DNA of 34,712 nt from Halodesulfurarchaeum sp. (GCA_042216015.1 JBDGUI010000004.1:35393-70104); one strand, 5' to 3'; shown: positions 13,738 to 22,885, counted from the stretch's first letter. Translations and numbers: made by a program. Notes: a model not told the origin generated them from the sequence alone.

Positions 13738-13830
13738 ACGTTCGGGGACGTTTCGGGGCGGCTCACTTAAGGTCCTCGAAGCGGGGTGCCGATCCACGCG
13801 GGTTTTGTCCCCGGGCGTGCAACGTTCCCT

Positions 13831-14439
13831 GTGGCCCTCTACGATCGCTATCTCGCGCTCCGGGTCCGGCTGACCGCGGGCGAGCCGCCGGCCCACGTCG
13901 CGCTGGTCATCACCGAGCGGGACCTGCTGGAGCGGGGCGCGTACGGGAGCCTCGAGCGCTTCGTCGAACTGGCCTTCGAGGTCGGGGCCGAGCGGGTGAC
14001 GGTGTACGTGAGCGTCCTCGATTCGGCCGTCCTGGGGACCGTCGAGCGATCGGTTCGACAGCTCGACTTTCCCCGCGAGGTGGCCATCCGGGACCCCCGG
14101 GCGCCCGAACCCGGGTCGGCGCCGATCCAGATCAACCTCGGGCTGGGCGGCAAGGAGGAGTTCGCCACCGCCGTGCGGTCGATCGCCGAGGCCGTCGAGG
14201 CCGGCGAGCTGGATCCCGAATCGATCTCCGAGCGCGACATCGAGGACCGGCTGGTGTTCGCCGACGAGCCCGACCTGGTCATCAAGACCGGCGAGGAGCG
14301 CCTCTCGGATTTCATGATCTGGCAGTCGGTGTACTCGGAACTGTACTTCACCGACGTCAACTGGCGGGACTTCCGCGATCGCGAGTTCCTTCGAGCGGTC
14401 CTCGAGTACAAAAAACGCACGCGCCGGTTCGGGCAGTGA
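13831..14439 (+). CDS. cis-prenyltransferase-like subunit (NgBR/Nus1-type, lacks DGNRR), 202 aa
   Basis: GTG start (MALYDRYL). PDLVIKTGEERLSDFMIWQSVYSELYF, C-terminal RRFG; VITERD replaces the catalytic IxDGNRR. Confidence 0.82.
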   Translation: MALYDRYLALRVRLTAGEPPAHVALVITERDLLERGAYGSLERFVELAFEVGAERVTVYVSVLDSAVLGTVERSVRQLDFPREVAIRDPRAPEPGSAPIQINLGLGGKEEFATAVRSIAEAVEAGELDPESISERDIEDRLVFADEPDLVIKTGEERLSDFMIWQSVYSELYFTDVNWRDFRDREFLRAVLEYKKRTRRFGQ

Positions 14440-14459: not shown

Positions 14460-15536
14460 CTAGAACAGGTCCTCCAGTTCGTCGGTCTCGAAGGCCCGCT
14501 TTCGGTCCGGGCCCGTGTCGACCTCCTCGGCCGCCTCGCGTGCCCGGTCCATGAACGACTGGAGCCGGGGCGATCCGGCGATCCCAGAGAGGACCACGAC
14601 GACCGCGATCCGCTCGCTCGAGAGCGGGAAGTCACCGCCCCTGACCAGCATGCTTCCCGTCTCGTCCTCGACCCACTTCCGGGCGCGCTCGACCCCCTTT
14701 CGCGAGAGTCGGTCCGGATCGCCGGCGACGATCACGAGTGCCGACTCCGCCGTCGTCGTCTCGGGAACGCTCATGTCCGTCAATAGCGCCTGGCGGGCCG
14801 TGCTCGTGATGACGTTGACGTTCTCGGCGGGGTCCGGGGAGGCGTCCGCCGCGGCGTAGCCGATCGCGGCCATCGACCCCCGCTTCAGCGTGTTGATCAC
14901 CTCGCTCGAGTCGACGACCGACTCGCCCACACCCTCGACGGCCTCGCCGGCCGCGAGCACCAGTCCGATCCGTCGGGCGATTCGGTCGTTGATGGCCTCG
15001 AAGGACCCGGCGACGGATTCGCCGGTCTGGCGCCAGGCGTCGTTTTCGAGGAGGATCAGCGAGTCGGCCTCCCGGGCGACCGTCTGGACGGACTGCCCGG
15101 CGTTTTGCAGGTAGATCGCCCCCTCGTCCCGGCCCGGCAGGATGCCGAGGCCGTAGACCGGCTTGTCGTAGAGTCGCCGAAGCTCCTTTGTGAGGACCGG
15201 CGCGCCGCCGCTCCCGGTGCCCCCGCCGAGCCCCGCGACGAGGAGGATTGCCTCCGTTTCCGGCTGGACGATTCCGTCGAGACCGGCGAGCACCTCGCCG
15301 ACGTCCGCCTGCATGATGGACGCCCCGAGTTGGTTGTCCCCGCCGACCCCGTGGCCGCTGACGCGGTCCTCCCCGATCAACATCGTCTCCACGTCGAGTC
15401 CCTTGAGGTCTGCGCTCGCGGTGTTCACGGCCAGGACGCCGCGAACGCCGTCGTAGCCGGCCTGGCGGTCGGCGTCCCGGATCGCCTCGGCGACGCGACC
15501 GCCGGCCTGTCCGAGTCCGATCAGCGCGGCTTTCAT
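14460..15536 (-). CDS. cetZ2: Tubulin/FtsZ-superfamily protein CetZ (CetZ2-like), 358 aa
   Basis: Start ATG 15536 (MKAALIGLGQAGG). GGGTGSG signature, GHGVGGDN, GESVVDSSEVINTL, RKGVERARKWVEDETGSMLVRGGDFP; from memory closest to Haloferax CetZ2. Confidence 0.85.
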   Translation of the reverse strand: MKAALIGLGQAGGRVAEAIRDADRQAGYDGVRGVLAVNTASADLKGLDVETMLIGEDRVSGHGVGGDNQLGASIMQADVGEVLAGLDGIVQPETEAILLVAGLGGGTGSGGAPVLTKELRRLYDKPVYGLGILPGRDEGAIYLQNAGQSVQTVAREADSLILLENDAWRQTGESVAGSFEAINDRIARRIGLVLAAGEAVEGVGESVVDSSEVINTLKRGSMAAIGYAAADASPDPAENVNVITSTARQALLTDMSVPETTTAESALVIVAGDPDRLSRKGVERARKWVEDETGSMLVRGGDFPLSSERIAVVVVLSGIAGSPRLQSFMDRAREAAEEVDTGPDRKRAFETDELEDLF

Positions 15537-15630
15537 GGGTAACTTCTCGCAGGGTCGGGACAATAACGTTGGGTACCGATGGTTCCTTGTCGGATCCGTC
15601 CCCGCAGGCTTGGACGACCGGGGACCCCCT

Positions 15631-17754
15631 TCAGGAACTGGCACTCCACCCGGACAGCCTCGTGGTCGCAGTCGGTTCGAGTGCCTTGCGAACGTCCTCC
15701 TCCCGGACTCCGAGCGGCGAGAGGATCGACGCCGCGGCCCGGATCGCCCGATCGTGGTAGAAGCCCACGTCGTAGGTGTCGCCCGGCTCGTGGGCCAATC
15801 GGACCCGGTCCCGCGAGGATTTCTCGTCGTCGACCACGACGTAGTGGACGTCCTGGCCCGGGCTGACGTCGATCCCCTGCACGCGGGAGCGCTCGAGTGC
15901 GGCCACGTTTCGCGTGGACCGGGTGTATGCCTCGAGGGACTTCGAGACCCGGTTCGTGAGCCGGAGCCGATCCGGGTCGACCGTCCCCGTGGCGAGTTCG
16001 TCGAGCCACCGTCGGAGGGTCCGCAGGACCGGCTCCGGGGCCCGGTGCTCGTCGAGTGTCTCGAGCAGCGCGCGCTGGAGATCCCCGACCCACGCACAGG
16101 TCGAGCGCTGGCGCAGTTCGATCCCCCGGACCCTGTAGGGGTCCTCGCCCGGCGCCGGGTCGGTGCGGCGGCCGAAGTACTTCGTGAGCGCCCCTTCCTC
16201 GCCCTCCTTCGTCGGGACGAAGGCCACCCAGTCGTAGGCGGCCTCGTACTCCAGATCGATGTCGGTTTGCGCTGAGACGGTGGCCGCGATCTCCTCGAGT
16301 GGCCGCTGTGCGGCGTCCGCCCGTGGGGTCACCCAGATCGAATCCACGATGCCGTGGAGCACGCGATAGCCGCCCGCCTCGAGGTGGTCCTTGGCCGCGA
16401 GCAGGAGTCGCCGGGCGAAGGCGTTGATGGCCTCGTGGGCCTCGATCCGGCCGAACTTCGCGTTCGAGAAGCCCTGGTAGCCAAAGCAGGAGACGAGGAT
16501 CCACTTGAGCGCCTCCGAGCGCCCCGCCAACGCCGCGCGGCGGTCCGGATCGTCGGTCTCGCGGAGTTCGGCCTTGATCGCCTCGCGATCCGCGATCAGC
16601 GGCTCGAGGACGTCGGGGAGATAGCCCCGCTCCGCACAGATCTCGTAGTCAAGCCCGGGGACCGTCGTCGACTCCCGACAGTCCCCGCGGATCGTCTCCG
16701 GGGAGATGTTCCGGGTGACGATGATGTTCGGGTACATCGAGGCGAAGTCGAGTTCGTGGACGTCCTCGTGGAGGCCCACCTCGGGGGAGAGGGTCGTCCC
16801 GCCCCGATCGGCCGCCTGGAGCTGGGCCATCGTCTTGAATCGCTCGTGGCGCCACGAGCGCCAGGGCACGAGCACGTTCCGCCGGCGGGCCTCCCGGATC
16901 TGGATCGCGGTGAGGACGTTGCCGATGGAGGCCCACCCGAGTTCCTGGAGCGGCTTCCGGGATCGCTCGACCAAATCGAGGACGCCCGCGAGGTTCGTCC
17001 GGCTGTAGAAGAAGGTGTTCGAGCGGTCGATGATGGCCCGACCGGGGACGGCATACCGGGCCGGGGAGTGGCCCACCCGCCCGTAACTCTCGTAGGTGGA
17101 CTGACCCGCGAGCTGCCGATAGCCCGGCTTTCGCCCCACCGAGATCGGCTCGCGGTCGTGGTCGGCGGCCACGTCGAACAGCTGAGGGATCACGTCGGCG
17201 CTCGAGACCACGAGCACGTCCGGGTCGAGGGCCTGGAGCCGGTCGAGGACGGTTTCGAGCACGGCGAGCCGGTCGCCGGTGACCCGCTGGTCGCCGATGG
17301 TGGCCTCGCGGAAGCCGCTTTCCCCGGCCATTTCGGTCACCGGGACGTCGATCGAGAGCGTCTCGAGGTCCCGCTCCGGGACCGGCGAACGGCCCGTCTC
17401 GAGACAGTAGCGAAACTGCGGCGTGAAATCCACGTCGAAGAGCCGCAGCGTGCCGGGCCGGTCCATGTTCGCGATCTGCGGCGCGAGCGCGTCCACGCTC
17501 TCGACGTGGTCCACCTCGACGGCGAGGACCTCGCGGGCCTCGTGTCGCCAGCCCGGCCGCTTTTCGGCGACGGCGACCTTCGCGACGGTCGGGTGGGCCG
17601 CGAGGTTCTCGTGGACGCTCGCGAGCGCCTCCCGGTCCTCGCTGCCGACGTAGATGGTCGGCCGGTAGTCCGCATCGACCGTGGCCGTCGCGCCGTCGGC
17701 CGCTGCCGTCCACCGGCGGACGCGTCCGTCCTCGAGGAAATCGACGGTGAACAT
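15631..17754 (-). CDS. polB2: Family B DNA polymerase, PolB2 group
   Basis: Motif A LDFASMYPNII, motif B LKWILVSCFGYQG, motif C altered to HGIVDS, RGIELRQ; no recognisable intact exonuclease motifs. Confidence 0.9.
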   Translation of the reverse strand: MFTVDFLEDGRVRRWTAAADGATATVDADYRPTIYVGSEDREALASVHENLAAHPTVAKVAVAEKRPGWRHEAREVLAVEVDHVESVDALAPQIANMDRPGTLRLFDVDFTPQFRYCLETGRSPVPERDLETLSIDVPVTEMAGESGFREATIGDQRVTGDRLAVLETVLDRLQALDPDVLVVSSADVIPQLFDVAADHDREPISVGRKPGYRQLAGQSTYESYGRVGHSPARYAVPGRAIIDRSNTFFYSRTNLAGVLDLVERSRKPLQELGWASIGNVLTAIQIREARRRNVLVPWRSWRHERFKTMAQLQAADRGGTTLSPEVGLHEDVHELDFASMYPNIIVTRNISPETIRGDCRESTTVPGLDYEICAERGYLPDVLEPLIADREAIKAELRETDDPDRRAALAGRSEALKWILVSCFGYQGFSNAKFGRIEAHEAINAFARRLLLAAKDHLEAGGYRVLHGIVDSIWVTPRADAAQRPLEEIAATVSAQTDIDLEYEAAYDWVAFVPTKEGEEGALTKYFGRRTDPAPGEDPYRVRGIELRQRSTCAWVGDLQRALLETLDEHRAPEPVLRTLRRWLDELATGTVDPDRLRLTNRVSKSLEAYTRSTRNVAALERSRVQGIDVSPGQDVHYVVVDDEKSSRDRVRLAHEPGDTYDVGFYHDRAIRAAASILSPLGVREEDVRKALEPTATTRLSGWSASS

Positions 17755-18102
17755 TCACTCCCTCGCCCCGGATTCGGTCGGATCGACTTCCCCCTCACCG
17801 GCTGCCGCACTCCCGCCGGAAGCGGCAGCCGTTTCGGCGTCGACCAACGCCGCCTGGAGCGACTCGACCCGCTCCTCGAGTGCGCCGATCCGGCGCTCCT
17901 GCTCCAGACAGATCGAGAGGAGGACGGCGTCCATCGGATCGGACGGGTTCTGGAAGCCGCCCGCGTCGGCGTGGGCCCGGGCGTGCTCCCAGAGCCGGTC
18001 GAAGGGCTCGCGGTTTCGCCGCCGGAGCGTGTGACGGTAGTCGCCCCAGCGCTCCTCGAGGGTGCGGAGCCGATCGCGGTAGGTCGGGTTGGTGCGGCCC
18101 AT
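17755..18102 (-). CDS. Small helical PolB2-associated protein (arCOG07300-like), 115 aa
   Basis: Start ATG 18102 (MGRTNPTYRDRL...YRHTLRR...FDRLWEHARAHADAGG...LLSI). TGATG overlap with the upstream gene; its stop abuts the polB2 ATG. Confidence 0.82.
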   Translation of the reverse strand: MGRTNPTYRDRLRTLEERWGDYRHTLRRRNREPFDRLWEHARAHADAGGFQNPSDPMDAVLLSICLEQERRIGALEERVESLQAALVDAETAAASGGSAAAGEGEVDPTESGARE

Positions 18103-18776
18103 CAGGGACTCACCCGGGCTGTGGATCGTTGCGTTGCCCCCCTCTCGTGGAGCGGCCGTCGGGCCCCGAGGATCCGGGCCCAGTAGGCCAGGGTCGTCTG
18201 TACCGTGGACCCGCCCTCGGGATAGACCAGCGTCTCGAAATCCGCCCCCCGGAATCGCGGACCAAACGCCGTCCGCTCGACCTCGATGACGTCGGTCGCG
18301 AGCCGCTCGACCGGGGCGCTGAACGCGTCCGCGTCGGTCCGGGTCGCGAGGACGGGCAGCCCCTCCTCGCGGGCGTACCGGGCCAGCCGGGAGAGAGTCT
18401 GCAGGAGGAGCGTCTCGGGCTCGGCACCCCGGATGTCCTCGTCCCGGTAGCGGGCGTCGACGGCCGGGACGACGAGGAGCCCGGTTTCCGCTCCCAGTTC
18501 CGCTCCCGCGTTTTGGACCAGCGCCCGGTGCTGGGAGGCCGTGAACCCGCGGGCGATTCGAATGCGGTCGAGAACCCGCCTGGAGGGGGCGACCTCGGCG
18601 AGGTGGCTCGAGATCCCGTGGCCGTTCGCGTCGATCCAGACCGCCGACCCGCCCTCGAGGAGCAGGTGATCGAGCACGAGGGCATGCAGGGGGCCGACCG
18701 CTCGGCCGTCCGTTTCGAGGAGGTGGACCCCCTCGCACAACTGGGGCAGTTCGGGGATGGACCGGGAGTGCTGCAT
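18102..18776 (-). CDS. Degenerate RadA/RecA-fold protein (no Walker A; ImuA-like)
   Basis: AVWIDA, LDRIRIARGFTASQH and LLVVPAVD match the RecA core; no GKT; C-terminal FETLVYP...QTTLAYW. Confidence 0.75.
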   Translation of the reverse strand: MQHSRSIPELPQLCEGVHLLETDGRAVGPLHALVLDHLLLEGGSAVWIDANGHGISSHLAEVAPSRRVLDRIRIARGFTASQHRALVQNAGAELGAETGLLVVPAVDARYRDEDIRGAEPETLLLQTLSRLARYAREEGLPVLATRTDADAFSAPVERLATDVIEVERTAFGPRFRGADFETLVYPEGGSTVQTTLAYWARILGARRPLHERGATQRSTARVSP

Positions 18777-18841
18777 GGGTAATTCGAGGAGTCCCGACCG
18801 GAAAAAGCGGCCACGGACCCTTCCGACCCTTCCGGACCGGG

Positions 18842-19885
18842 TCAGTCCGGTCGCGGGGCGTCCTCCACGAGGCGGTACTCGCGGCGCTGGGCGGCCCCCG
18901 AGGCCGCGAGGAGGTCGTACTGCTCGAGCTTCCGGAGGTACTTCCGGACCGTCCGTCGCGAGCGCGGATCGTCCATCCGCTCGGCATACCGCTCGTAGAT
19001 CGCGCCCGGGCTGAGCGGCCCGGCCGCCGCGAGGAGCTCGTAGATCGCCCGCTGGTGGTCGTTCAGCCGCTCGAGGGTCGCCCGGCGCACGTCGTGGCTG
19101 GCCGCGTCGATCGCCCTCGTCACGTGGTCGGGCCCGATCCGCTCCGTGCCGTCCTCGACGGCTCGGCGGGCGGCGCCCTCGAGTGCGGCGATGGCGTCCC
19201 GAGCGTTGCCGTTCGCGGCCCGGGCGACGTCTCCGAGCAGGTCCGGTTCGATCACGTCGGGCTGGAGGCCGTATCTGGCCCGCTGTTCCAGGATCGGCTC
19301 GAGTTCCGCGGCCGTGTAGGGGGAGAACGTCACGTCGACGAAGGTGCGGAGCCGGGACTGGATCCGCTCGTCCAGTCCGGCCGTCACGCCGGCCCGGTCG
19401 TTCGCGGTCACGACGACCGCGAGGTCCCGCGTTTCGTAGAGGTCATAGAGCACCTCGGGATCGGCGAGCTGGTCGGCCTCGTCGAGGATCACGACGACCG
19501 GCGCCCCGATCTCCCGGAGGGCGTCCTGGAGCGCCGTCGCGGCGTGATCCCGGGCCCGCACCTGCTCCCCCTCGATAGCCTCGACGATCCGGTAGAGCAC
19601 TCGATACCGGGAGTGTTCGGACCAGCAGTTGACGACCGCGGTGTGCAATTCGCCGGCGTGGGCGGCGAGTCTCTCGAGGAGATAGCGGCTACTGCTCGTC
19701 TTGCCCGTCCCGGCGGGACCGGCGAGGAAGAGCCCCGGGGCGGGTTCGCCCTCGAGGATCGGCTCGAGCGCCGTCGCCATCGTGTCGAGTTCCCCGTCGC
19801 GGGAGTGAAAGTCGGCCGGGACCCACTCGGCGCCGAAGACCGCGCTGTCCGCGAAGATCGCGCCTCGATGGGACCGACGGAGCAT
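18842..19885 (-). CDS. cdc6: Orc1/Cdc6 family AAA+ ATPase with C-terminal wHTH
   Basis: GPAGTGKT, VNCW, VILDEADQL, RIQSRL, FSPYT, GNARDAI and wHTH RRTVRKYLRKLEQYDL. Confidence 0.92.
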   Translation of the reverse strand: MLRRSHRGAIFADSAVFGAEWVPADFHSRDGELDTMATALEPILEGEPAPGLFLAGPAGTGKTSSSRYLLERLAAHAGELHTAVVNCWSEHSRYRVLYRIVEAIEGEQVRARDHAATALQDALREIGAPVVVILDEADQLADPEVLYDLYETRDLAVVVTANDRAGVTAGLDERIQSRLRTFVDVTFSPYTAAELEPILEQRARYGLQPDVIEPDLLGDVARAANGNARDAIAALEGAARRAVEDGTERIGPDHVTRAIDAASHDVRRATLERLNDHQRAIYELLAAAGPLSPGAIYERYAERMDDPRSRRTVRKYLRKLEQYDLLAASGAAQRREYRLVEDAPRPD

Positions 19886-19931
19886 GATGGACCGTCGGAG
19901 ATCCTCGGCCTAAACCGACCGCCTACCGGGG

Positions 19932-19942
19932 TGAAAGTGAAA
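19932..19942 (-). promoter_or_regulatory. TTTCACTTTCA DNA-damage/UV-response-like motif upstream of orc1/cdc6
   Basis: Plus-strand tgaaagtgaaa, 47-57 bp upstream of ATG 19885 and upstream of a TTTAGG TATA-like element at about 19909-19914. Confidence 0.7.
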
Positions 19943-19975
19943 CTGCCCGGGCGCCGATCGCAGCCGGCTGCCCCG

Positions 19976-21815: not shown

Positions 21816-22721
21816 TCAATCGGCGGGCGAATCGGCCTCCTCGACCGGCTGCTCCCCGTCCGGCAGCGTCTCGCCCAGCCGGTCGAGCACCCGTCGGCCC
21901 TGCACCTCGTCGCCCAGGGCCCGGACCAGCGCGAGGGCCCGCCGGGTTCGGGTCCGGCGCCAGGAGGCCTCGCGGGCCTCGTAGGTCCGGATCGCCCGGA
22001 GGAAGTCGACCTTCGAGAACTCGGGCCAGTAGGGCGTACAGAAGAAGGCCGCGGCCTCGTTCCCGTTCGCATACCAGGGGAGGAAGTTGCTCGTCCGCTC
22101 GTCCCCTCCGGTCCGGACGATGAGGTCGACCTCCCGCATCGATCCGTGGTAGAGCCGGGATTCGACGGTGTCCACGTCGACCGTCGCGGGGTCGAGTTCG
22201 CCGGTGGCGACGTCGCGGGCCACCTCCCGGGTCACGTCGAGCAGGGCGGCCCGGCCGCCGTAGGCGATCGCGACATTGAGCGTCAAAGCGTCGTACTCGG
22301 CGGTCTGGCGCTGGGCGAAATCGATGGCCTCCTGCACCCGCTGGGGCATCCGGTGGGTCTGGCCGAGCACCCGGATGTGCACCTCCTCCTCGTGGACCCG
22401 GTCGCTGTCCGCGAACTCGGAGAGCTTCTCGGCGAGCAGGTCATAGAGGTGTTCTCGCTCCGCGGGGGGTCGGTCGAAGTTCTCCGTGGAGAAGGCATAG
22501 ATCGTCAGCTCCTCGATTCCCAGCTCGGCACACCACTCGAGGACGCGCTCGGTGGTCTTCGCGCCGGCCTCGTGACCCTCCTTCGGCGCGTCCCCCTGCT
22601 CGCGGGCGTAGCGACGGTTCCCGTCCTGGATGATCGCCACGTGGGTGGGCGCCCCCGAGATCTCCCGGCGGAGCAGTCCCTTGTAGATGGCCCGGAAGCT
22701 GCGGGTGACCCACTCTCGCAT
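21816..22721 (-). CDS. uppS: cis-prenyltransferase catalytic subunit (polyprenyl diphosphate synthase)
   Basis: Start ATG 22721. PTHVAIIQDGNRRYA, YAFSTENF, YGGR, DLIVRTGGDERTSNFLPW. Confidence 0.93.
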   Translation of the reverse strand: MREWVTRSFRAIYKGLLRREISGAPTHVAIIQDGNRRYAREQGDAPKEGHEAGAKTTERVLEWCAELGIEELTIYAFSTENFDRPPAEREHLYDLLAEKLSEFADSDRVHEEEVHIRVLGQTHRMPQRVQEAIDFAQRQTAEYDALTLNVAIAYGGRAALLDVTREVARDVATGELDPATVDVDTVESRLYHGSMREVDLIVRTGGDERTSNFLPWYANGNEAAAFFCTPYWPEFSKVDFLRAIRTYEAREASWRRTRTRRALALVRALGDEVQGRRVLDRLGETLPDGEQPVEEADSPAD

Positions 22722-22885
22722 CGTCTGAATCCACTCTCCCGGCGTCCATGAGTTTTCCGCTCGAAGCCCGGTCTCAGTCGGCGTTGGGCTCGGGATCGAA
22801 GCGGTCGGGAAATCCCCGGGGAAGGGAATCGATTCGTCGTCCGGGAGACCGGAGCGGCTAAACGGTCCCTCGCCCAACCCCTCCC

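Follow-up and report, generated by a model that had tools for sequence, protein, structure and literature searches.

The operon that encodes the archaeal polymerase PolB2, an inactivated RadA homolog (iRadA) and the small protein arCOG07300 was described by Makarova et al. (2014, PMC4104785), who reported an arORC2 gene in its neighbourhood in many euryarchaea and lexA in its bacterial versions. Timinskas et al. (2025, PMC11791011) renamed the small protein PPB2, called the operon a mutasome and modelled a complex of PolB2, iRadA and three copies of PPB2; for H. formicicum, the modelled complex comprised PolB2, iRadA, three PPB2 and three PCNA, with an interface predicted TM-score (ipTM) of 0.76. 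According to their supplementary table, orc1/cdc6 genes are enriched beside polB2 (364 listings vs 1823 PolB2 entries), and the authors read this neighbour by analogy with LexA and with Orc1-2 of Sulfolobus. Here, we analyse a locus of this type in a 34,712-nt stretch of DNA from Halodesulfurarchaeum sp. (GCA_042216015.1 JBDGUI010000004.1:35393-70104), hereafter the window, in which an orc1/cdc6 paralog (orc) lies upstream of iRadA, PPB2 and polB2, and we consider how the Orc protein might regulate the polymerase operon.

Orc1-2 of Sulfolobus islandicus binds the hexamer ANTTTC, activates dpo2 and raises the expression of its own gene (Sun 2018, PMC6061795), and a haloviral Orc1 relays mitomycin C damage (PMC10123103). 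In a review of H. volcanii, non-origin Orc paralogs are called probably dormant (PMC7776575). In Halobacterium NRC-1, an 11-nt motif occurs ~50 nt before radA1, top6B, vng17 and vng280, all of which are induced by ultraviolet (UV)-B radiation (Boubriak 2008, PMC2556686). This UV-B-responsive motif, TTTCACTTTCA, is referred to below as the UV box. We propose, with a probability of roughly 60%, that the window carries the known PolB2 mutasome operon together with a linked non-initiator Orc, and that damage would act through Orc and a pair of tandem GGAA boxes on the mutasome genes.

The mutasome genes and their linked Orc

Between positions 14460 and 19945, the window carries five minus-strand genes in the same orientation. 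An original prediction, made from the nucleotide sequence, had described them as a candidate damage-inducible cassette of orc1/cdc6, an inactive RadA-like gene, a small-protein gene, polB2 and cetZ2 under a UV box, and family scans agreed with the families that it had assigned. The orc gene (18842–19885, minus strand) encodes 347 aa that matched TIGR02928 at 183.9 bits (cut-off 181.3) and include a Cdc6 lid domain. Downstream of it are iRadA (18102–18776, minus strand; 224 aa), which matched the Pfam Rad51 family PF08423 at 24.3 bits and has no P-loop; a 115-aa open reading frame (ORF; 17755–18102, minus strand) that is PPB2/arCOG07300-like; and polB2 itself (15631–17754, minus strand), whose 707-aa product matched NF004418 at 1022 bits (cut-off 692). 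The tight coupling that had been described was also evident: the TGA stop of iRadA and the ATG of the PPB2-like gene overlap by one base (TGATG), the stop of the latter directly abuts the polB2 ATG, and orc is separated from iRadA by a 65-bp spacer (18777–18841).

These three genes make up a chromosomal copy of the iRadA–PPB2–PolB2 type of operon already published (group 1a). When iRadA was aligned with the true RadA of a congener, the N-terminal helix–hairpin–helix domain was absent and the whole Walker A segment was deleted, which bears out the view that the RadA-like protein is inactive. The protein carries a PCNA-binding-like (PCNA-interacting-protein-like, or PIP-like) motif, QTTLAYWA, at residue 193, of which Q193, T194, T195 and W199 are invariant in 29 sequences. 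The PPB2-like ORF had no match to a Pfam or NCBIfam family; its N-terminus, MGRTNPTYRDRL, agrees with that of the H. formicicum PPB2 printed in the supplement of PMC11791011, and in most of the loci surveyed tblastn located a PPB2-like gene between those for iRadA and PolB2. In PolB2, motif A is present (LDFASMYPN) and the motif C region reads HGIVDSIWV at residue 467, where IVD replaces DxD and the first Asp is substituted. The predicted iRadA is, on this evidence, an inactive recombinase homolog coupled to a DxD-altered polymerase. The nearest named relatives are metagenome-assembled genomes of Halodesulfurarchaeum (PolB2 identity of 86% and 79%), and identity to the PolB2 proteins of the 84 surveyed loci was 52–86%. 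In the table of Timinskas et al. (PMC11791011), the sister species Halodesulfurarchaeum formicicum is listed with orc1/cdc6 at −4 and with the IVD string seen here, and the motif of its iRadA, QTTLTYWA, is at residue 193.

The original prediction knew of no description of this full arrangement in haloarchaea. The orc–iRadA–PPB2–PolB2 linkage and the LexA parallel are nevertheless in print (PMC4104785, PMC11791011), with H. formicicum among the listed entries. The earlier interpretation is partly supported, being largely right but already published, and its cetZ2 component is rejected below. What the present analysis adds is the promoter wiring, which is new within the literature searched; the cassette, the Orc neighbour and the UV box had been reported before.

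Linkage between orc and polB2 was surveyed in 301 sampled genomes of the class, using cut-offs of E ≤ 1e-50 for PolB2 and E ≤ 1e-40 for the Orc clade. The survey covered 84 distinct polB2 loci, after removal of two same-contig duplicates and with the window excluded from the count. Linkage was counted in the 77 loci whose upstream context extended to 5.9 kb or more, a linked Orc being one with at least 35% identity to the window Orc. Such an Orc occurred within 6 kb of polB2 in 41 of the 77 loci. A neighbourhood survey had been suggested as a check on the original prediction, and its orc half was upheld by this count; its cetZ2 half was not, as adjacency was found in 5 of 84 loci, all in this genus. 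Among the 41 linked Orcs, 37 were upstream and co-oriented, two were downstream and co-oriented, and two were in the opposite orientation; 13 lay within 400 bp of iRadA.

When 92 sequences were placed in a tree, the PolB2-linked Orcs grouped in a single clade with 50 tips, inside which one divergent extra member fell; this clade was separate from the Orcs encoded at position 1 of complete chromosomes. Its members scored at least 168 bits against the window Orc; every other collected Orc paralog scored at most 108. The window Orc has a Walker A motif (GPAGTGKT) at residue 56, a Walker B motif (ILDEAD) at residue 133 and a C-terminal winged helix. The ATPase motifs and four winged-helix residues (R311, R314, K319 and Y323) are invariant across 29 clade members. 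Overall, PolB2 was present in 193 of the 301 genomes and the Orc clade in 213, a figure in which the E ≤ 1e-40 cut may let in a few non-clade paralogs. A clade Orc was found in 162 of the 193 PolB2-positive genomes vs 51 of the 108 PolB2-negative ones (both, 162; PolB2 only, 31; Orc only, 51; neither, 57; the genomes are related and not independent). The association of PolB2 with the Orc clade is real but not exclusive.

We also searched for features of a replication origin. With up to 3 mismatches allowed, the window contains no sequence resembling an origin recognition box (ORB); no repeat array occurs in the spacers of 90 bp and 65 bp that flank orc, and the locus has no AT-rich stretch. 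As a positive control, the same genome contains, at positions 2412–2641 of contig C37, an ORB inverted pair with G-strings that flanks a stretch with a guanine-plus-cytosine (GC) content of ~0.40. Together with the separate clade, these data support the classification of the PolB2-adjacent Orc as a probable non-origin paralog, as had been proposed. The C37 region lies just upstream of another, Orc1-type gene and is a probable oriC. In a search of the PDB with the window Orc, the ORC1-type entries 2V1U and 2QBY_A scored 84 and 70 bits, respectively, and the Aeropyrum ORC2 entry 1W5S scored 56 bits.

Predicted promoter elements upstream of orc and iRadA

Two separate promoters with different upstream elements are predicted at the locus, the UV box being associated with orc and the GGAA boxes with the trio. 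The UV box lies at 19932–19942 (minus strand), 47–57 nt ahead of the orc ATG and 16 nt upstream of a TATA-like element, GTTTAGG (19909–19915, minus strand; ~26–29 nt ahead of the ATG). The gtttag of this element is kept in congeners, and its position is consistent with a leaderless transcript. The box had been noticed in the orc promoter before, and it is the published Halobacterium motif (PMC2556686). Together with the bases that precede it, TTTCACTTTCA forms two tandem ANTTTC hexamers, AGTTTC and ACTTTC. Five exact copies occur on the two strands of the 1.68-Mb genome vs 0.12 expected under a first-order Markov model, an enrichment of ~40-fold; the reversed word occurs once. At the orc promoter, the element and its flanking bases are identical in five distinct congener loci, the surroundings of which have diverged. 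The orc promoters of all other genera examined lack it.

The other copies in this genome precede radA (C34:~70, at a contig edge), top6B (C26:124 and 138) and a 57-aa gene (C1:92317). The top6B gene, a 1372-aa ORF with an intein, has two tandem UV boxes upstream, and the product of the 57-aa gene is CxxC-rich and Zn-ribbon-like. The spacing between box and TATA at orc is the same as that at radA. In four relative genomes, TTTCACTTTCA occurs six to nine times each vs two to four times for the reversed word, and the radA and small-gene sites are conserved. A UV-box regulon of radA, top6B and the small CxxC/CxC gene seems to be conserved from Halobacterium to this family. The small gene encodes a 57–66-aa protein with CxxC and CxC pairs that belongs to no Pfam family, and it has the box in all five genomes looked at. 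Besides the sites in this genome, the loci behind this observation are L100, L103, L109, L116, L101, L106, L111 and L112. The box also precedes a threonine-dehydratase-like gene for a pyridoxal-phosphate-dependent, ACT-domain protein (L104, L113 and L089; genomes G004, G010 and G113), and at these loci a conserved untranslated stretch of ~120–175 nt separates box and gene. A search of the literature, with subscription-only papers outside its coverage, found no identified UV-box binder.

The 65-bp spacer between orc and iRadA contains a promoter element that the original prediction missed. Tandem GGAA boxes with a 9-nt period, GGAAGGGTCGGAA (18821–18833, minus strand), end 14 nt upstream of a T-run TATA-like sequence, GCTTTTTCC (18800–18808, minus strand), which is ~26–30 nt ahead of the iRadA ATG and is the putative TATA element of the iRadA–PPB2–polB2 promoter. 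The position of GCTTTTTCC agrees with that of gcttat and gtttat elements at other loci. Among 76 distinct iRadA upstream regions, 59 contain a tandem G[GA]AA or TTCC-GGAA, and 43 have the full architecture of motif plus TATA. The same architecture occurs in 34 of 43 distinct orc upstream regions. For comparison, 870 random 200-nt windows from the same loci contained the tandem in 32 cases and the architecture in six, and reversed sequences never contained the architecture. The distance from boxes to TATA was 14–15 nt in 42 of 43 iRadA promoters and in 31 of 35 orc promoters. The eight orc promoters without boxes include all five Halodesulfurarchaeum loci, which have the UV box instead.

Boxes likewise stand ahead of two unlinked clade Orcs (L136 and L133), and pHV4 of H. 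volcanii has them in front of iRadA as well as in front of its Cdc6/Cdc18 gene. A loose genome-wide version of the architecture pattern gave five matches in the genome of the window, the iRadA site being the only close tandem-box match. Boxes were present in 43 of 52 iRadA promoters from genomes that contain a clade Orc vs two of six from Orc-less genomes (naive p = 0.019; the relatives are not independent). No published GGAA or TTCCGGAA operator was found in a literature search whose coverage did not extend to subscription-only papers. Two points seem to be new: the tandem GGAA boxes on the iRadA and orc promoters, and the genus-specific presence of the radA-type UV box on orc.

The pHV4 locus (L187, record 57789–66289) is a tractable copy, comprising a Cdc6/Cdc18 gene, iRadA, PPB2 and polB2. 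Its clade Orc is 39% identical to the window Orc, and the gene order is Orc, SRAP, metallophosphoesterase, RNase H-like, iRadA, PPB2, a TnpB insertion and polB2 (HVO_A0065); the annotation lists iRadA and PPB2 simply as hypothetical proteins. Identity of this Orc with the UV-linked Orc14 (PMC12890983) was considered and dropped because the H. volcanii review places Orc14 in a chromosomal prophage (PMC7776575). Two other loci come from genomes in which no clade Orc was found. In L075 (G167), a UV-box-like sequence, TTTCAGTTTCAC, stands before iRadA instead of the boxes, and in L181 (G160) the GGAA boxes are cut off at an apparent insertion breakpoint.

Proposed regulation and alternative explanations

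The predicted elements can be assembled into a regulatory cascade. DNA damage or replication stress would act via a UV-box factor to raise the level of Orc. Orc, an intact AAA+ protein with a winged helix, would bind the GGAA boxes next to the transcription factor B recognition element (BRE) and TATA, and would thereby turn on the complex of the error-prone polymerase. Autoregulation of Orc would follow in the other genera, whose orc promoters have the same boxes. The outcome would be a local regulator that works like LexA and, by analogy, Orc may work like Orc1-2 without belonging to that group. A more specific version is that Orcs of the PolB2-linked clade serve as dedicated transcription factors, usually under their own control, that the operator of the clade is the tandem GGAA or TTCCGGAA element 14–15 nt upstream of TATA, and that in Halodesulfurarchaeum its promoter was rewired from this self-control to a radA-type UV box to give a two-tier, LexA-like cascade. 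We advance this version tentatively, at somewhat less than even odds. If it were true, the boxes would be the first operator to be defined for a non-initiator Orc of haloarchaea. Haloarchaea have many Orc paralogs, and a short, precisely placed and widely conserved operator candidate, located before both one particular Orc clade and the mutasome operon, offers a concrete and cheap test. Should Orc bind the boxes, this would show how archaea gate an error-prone polymerase and would extend the Sulfolobus Orc1-2 paradigm to Euryarchaeota via a non-orthologous Orc.

Several observations weigh against this proposal. The tree support for the PolB2-linked Orc clade is moderate (0.745), and the clade Orc is not devoted to PolB2 alone, since about half of the PolB2-negative genomes (51/108) have it. 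The window Orc is not an ortholog of Sulfolobus Orc1-2, as ORC1-type PDB entries outscore the ORC2 of Aeropyrum, and the sequence of the GGAA boxes is not ANTTTC. Two of the six iRadA promoters retain the boxes where the clade Orc was not found, and the boxes could belong to another factor. With respect to the UV box, radA retains it exactly in three of five genomes in which the clade Orc was not found; the clade Orc is therefore probably not the UV-box binder, and we judged that role unlikely for it. The genus is an anaerobic sediment dweller, so that by "UV" DNA damage in general, or replication stress, is probably meant. Finally, none of the eight sequencing runs listed for this organism is recorded as RNA.

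Orc might instead act at the protein level: as an AAA+ protein, it would load or recruit the ATPase-dead complex at stalled forks or on PCNA, and the boxes would be read by some other transcription factor. The loss of the iRadA ATPase alongside the invariant Walker A and B motifs of Orc would fit such a role, as would the linked and co-oriented genes at 37 of the 77 loci, and Makarova et al. suggested a replication-related role for the neighbourhood (PMC4104785). Nevertheless, Orc has a promoter of its own, it is often 0.5–3.4 kb away with intervening genes or is encoded elsewhere in the genome (G113), and the published models of the complex need no Orc (PMC11791011). That the Orc and trio promoters have boxes in common agrees with a regulator that acts on the trio, and we consider a protein-level role unlikely. 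It is very unlikely that Orc is a replication initiator, be it at a nearby or cryptic origin or in origin-independent initiation with the trio, a possibility raised by Makarova et al. (PMC4104785). The protein has the full length of an Orc1/Cdc6, its ATPase and winged helix are intact, and its best PDB relatives are the initiator-type ORC1 proteins, yet the locus has none of the ORB, repeat or AT-rich features sought, the ORB pair and AT-rich region are beside a different orc on C37, and the clade stands apart from the position-1 Orcs.

Two further alternatives concern the ends of the locus, and we give little credence to either. At the upstream end, TTTCACTTTCA before orc could be AT-rich promoter sequence that arose by chance and regulates nothing. 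Promoters of archaea stand out as AT-rich islands where the genome is GC-rich, and some copies precede unrelated genes, such as one for a nitrate-reductase-delta-like chaperone in relatives. Chance is nonetheless highly improbable given that the 11-mer and its flanking bases are kept in the five congener loci amid divergence, that the word is ~40-fold enriched, that its TATA spacing is as at radA, and that radA and top6B belong to the published set of four genes that have the motif and are induced by UV-B. At the downstream end, the original prediction counted cetZ2 as a possible morphology effector, which would make the locus a five-gene damage cassette. This cetZ2-like tubulin-family gene (14460–15536, minus strand; 358 aa; CetZ_C, 210.7 bits; Tubulin, 93.6 bits) is co-oriented, 94 bp after polB2, and the arrangement recurs in five further loci of close relatives. 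Its best PDB match was 4B45 (448 bits), which we take to be CetZ2 of H. volcanii, vs 334 bits for 4B46, presumably CetZ1 of the same species. However, cetZ follows polB2 in only the 5 of 84 loci mentioned above, those of the closest relatives. Among 14 CetZ2-ortholog loci in the family, three of this genus adjoin polB2, and 11 of other genera have no polB2 beside them. The 94-bp spacer contains neither a UV box nor a GGAA tandem; it contains a promoter box, ACCCAACGTTATTG (15561–15574, minus strand; ~25–30 nt ahead of the cetZ2 ATG), that is conserved in all six congener loci. In addition, the text and supplements of PMC11791011 contain no tubulin or CetZ term. Because the gene has its own conserved predicted promoter and adjoins polB2 only in this genus, we conclude that cetZ2 is most probably an independently transcribed neighbour and not part of the cassette. 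A co-regulated five-gene cassette is thus scarcely tenable.

Genomic setting and comparison with described systems

The genes that flank the locus are ordinary, encoding a glutathione-S-transferase (GST)-like protein, a DUF6517 protein, a Toprim protein and two undecaprenyl-diphosphate-synthase (UPPS)-like proteins. The two UPPS-like genes (13786–14439, plus strand, and 21819–22877, minus strand) bracket the locus; one of them encodes a 217-aa product that aligns only to the C-terminal half of the Pfam model and may be a truncated paralog. GC content is 0.61–0.72 in the window and 0.71–0.72 across the locus, where it is evenly distributed. A mobile-element origin of the cassette at this site was considered and rejected: the GC content is even, the window contains no tRNA gene, no integrase or transposase family was among the Pfam hits of its 24 scanned ORFs, and synteny with the GST-like and UPPS-like genes is kept in congeners. 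Many other copies of the cassette are plasmid-borne. PolB2 homologs occur on 106 haloarchaeal plasmid records, and many of the promoter regions are near-identical from one genus to another, a sign that the cassette may often have moved horizontally. One congener has a second copy (L032; G010:C1:1199471-1213588) that is apparently decaying, with orc reduced to its last ~100 residues and an in-frame TGA in polB2; the GGAA boxes before its iRadA are kept.

The locus is most similar to the mutasome operon of group 1a, with which it shares the gene order, the tight coupling, the IVD string, a P-loop-less RadA homolog, the PIP-like motif of iRadA and the orc1/cdc6 neighbour; the genes do not differ in substance. 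The mutasome papers do not analyse promoters, and the word "promoter" does not occur in the main text of the 2025 paper; the GGAA boxes and the presence of a UV box before orc are therefore additions made here. The Sulfolobus Orc1-2 circuit likewise pairs a non-initiator Orc1/Cdc6 with a PolB2 target, Dpo2 being damage-inducible in Sulfolobus and the target being presumed here. Both have a short, T-rich element upstream of TATA, and the haloarchaeal UV box holds ANTTTC twice. The two systems differ in that Orc1-2 is a global regulator, whereas the Orc described here is non-orthologous and linked to its presumed target. Moreover, the promoter element is ANTTTC in Sulfolobus, and the putative shared element here is the tandem GGAA.

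In the UV-B regulon of Halobacterium NRC-1, the 11-mer is identical, is also ~50 nt before the start codon and upstream of TATA, and also marks radA and top6B. The difference is that the box here is additionally on a PolB2-linked orc; the terms "orc", "cdc6" and "polB" are absent from the main text of PMC2556686. Upstream of the NRC-1 polB2 gene, which is on pNRC200, there is an IS200/IS605 transposase; neither iRadA nor PPB2 is annotated within 7 kb, and the only orc there is a convergent canonical orc4. We judged this locus uninformative for reading polB2 from Halobacterium UV arrays.

Among bacterial systems, lexA with imuA-imuB-dnaE2 and lexA with bacterial PolB2 operons provide the comparison, and the imuABC parallel is absent from the 2025 PolB2 paper. 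In bacterial lexA cassettes, as at this locus, the gene of a damage regulator stands beside an operon in which an error-prone polymerase is combined with a recombinase homolog that is inactive. The regulator here, by contrast, would be an AAA+ Orc that is probably an activator acting upstream of BRE/TATA, and not a self-cleaving repressor.

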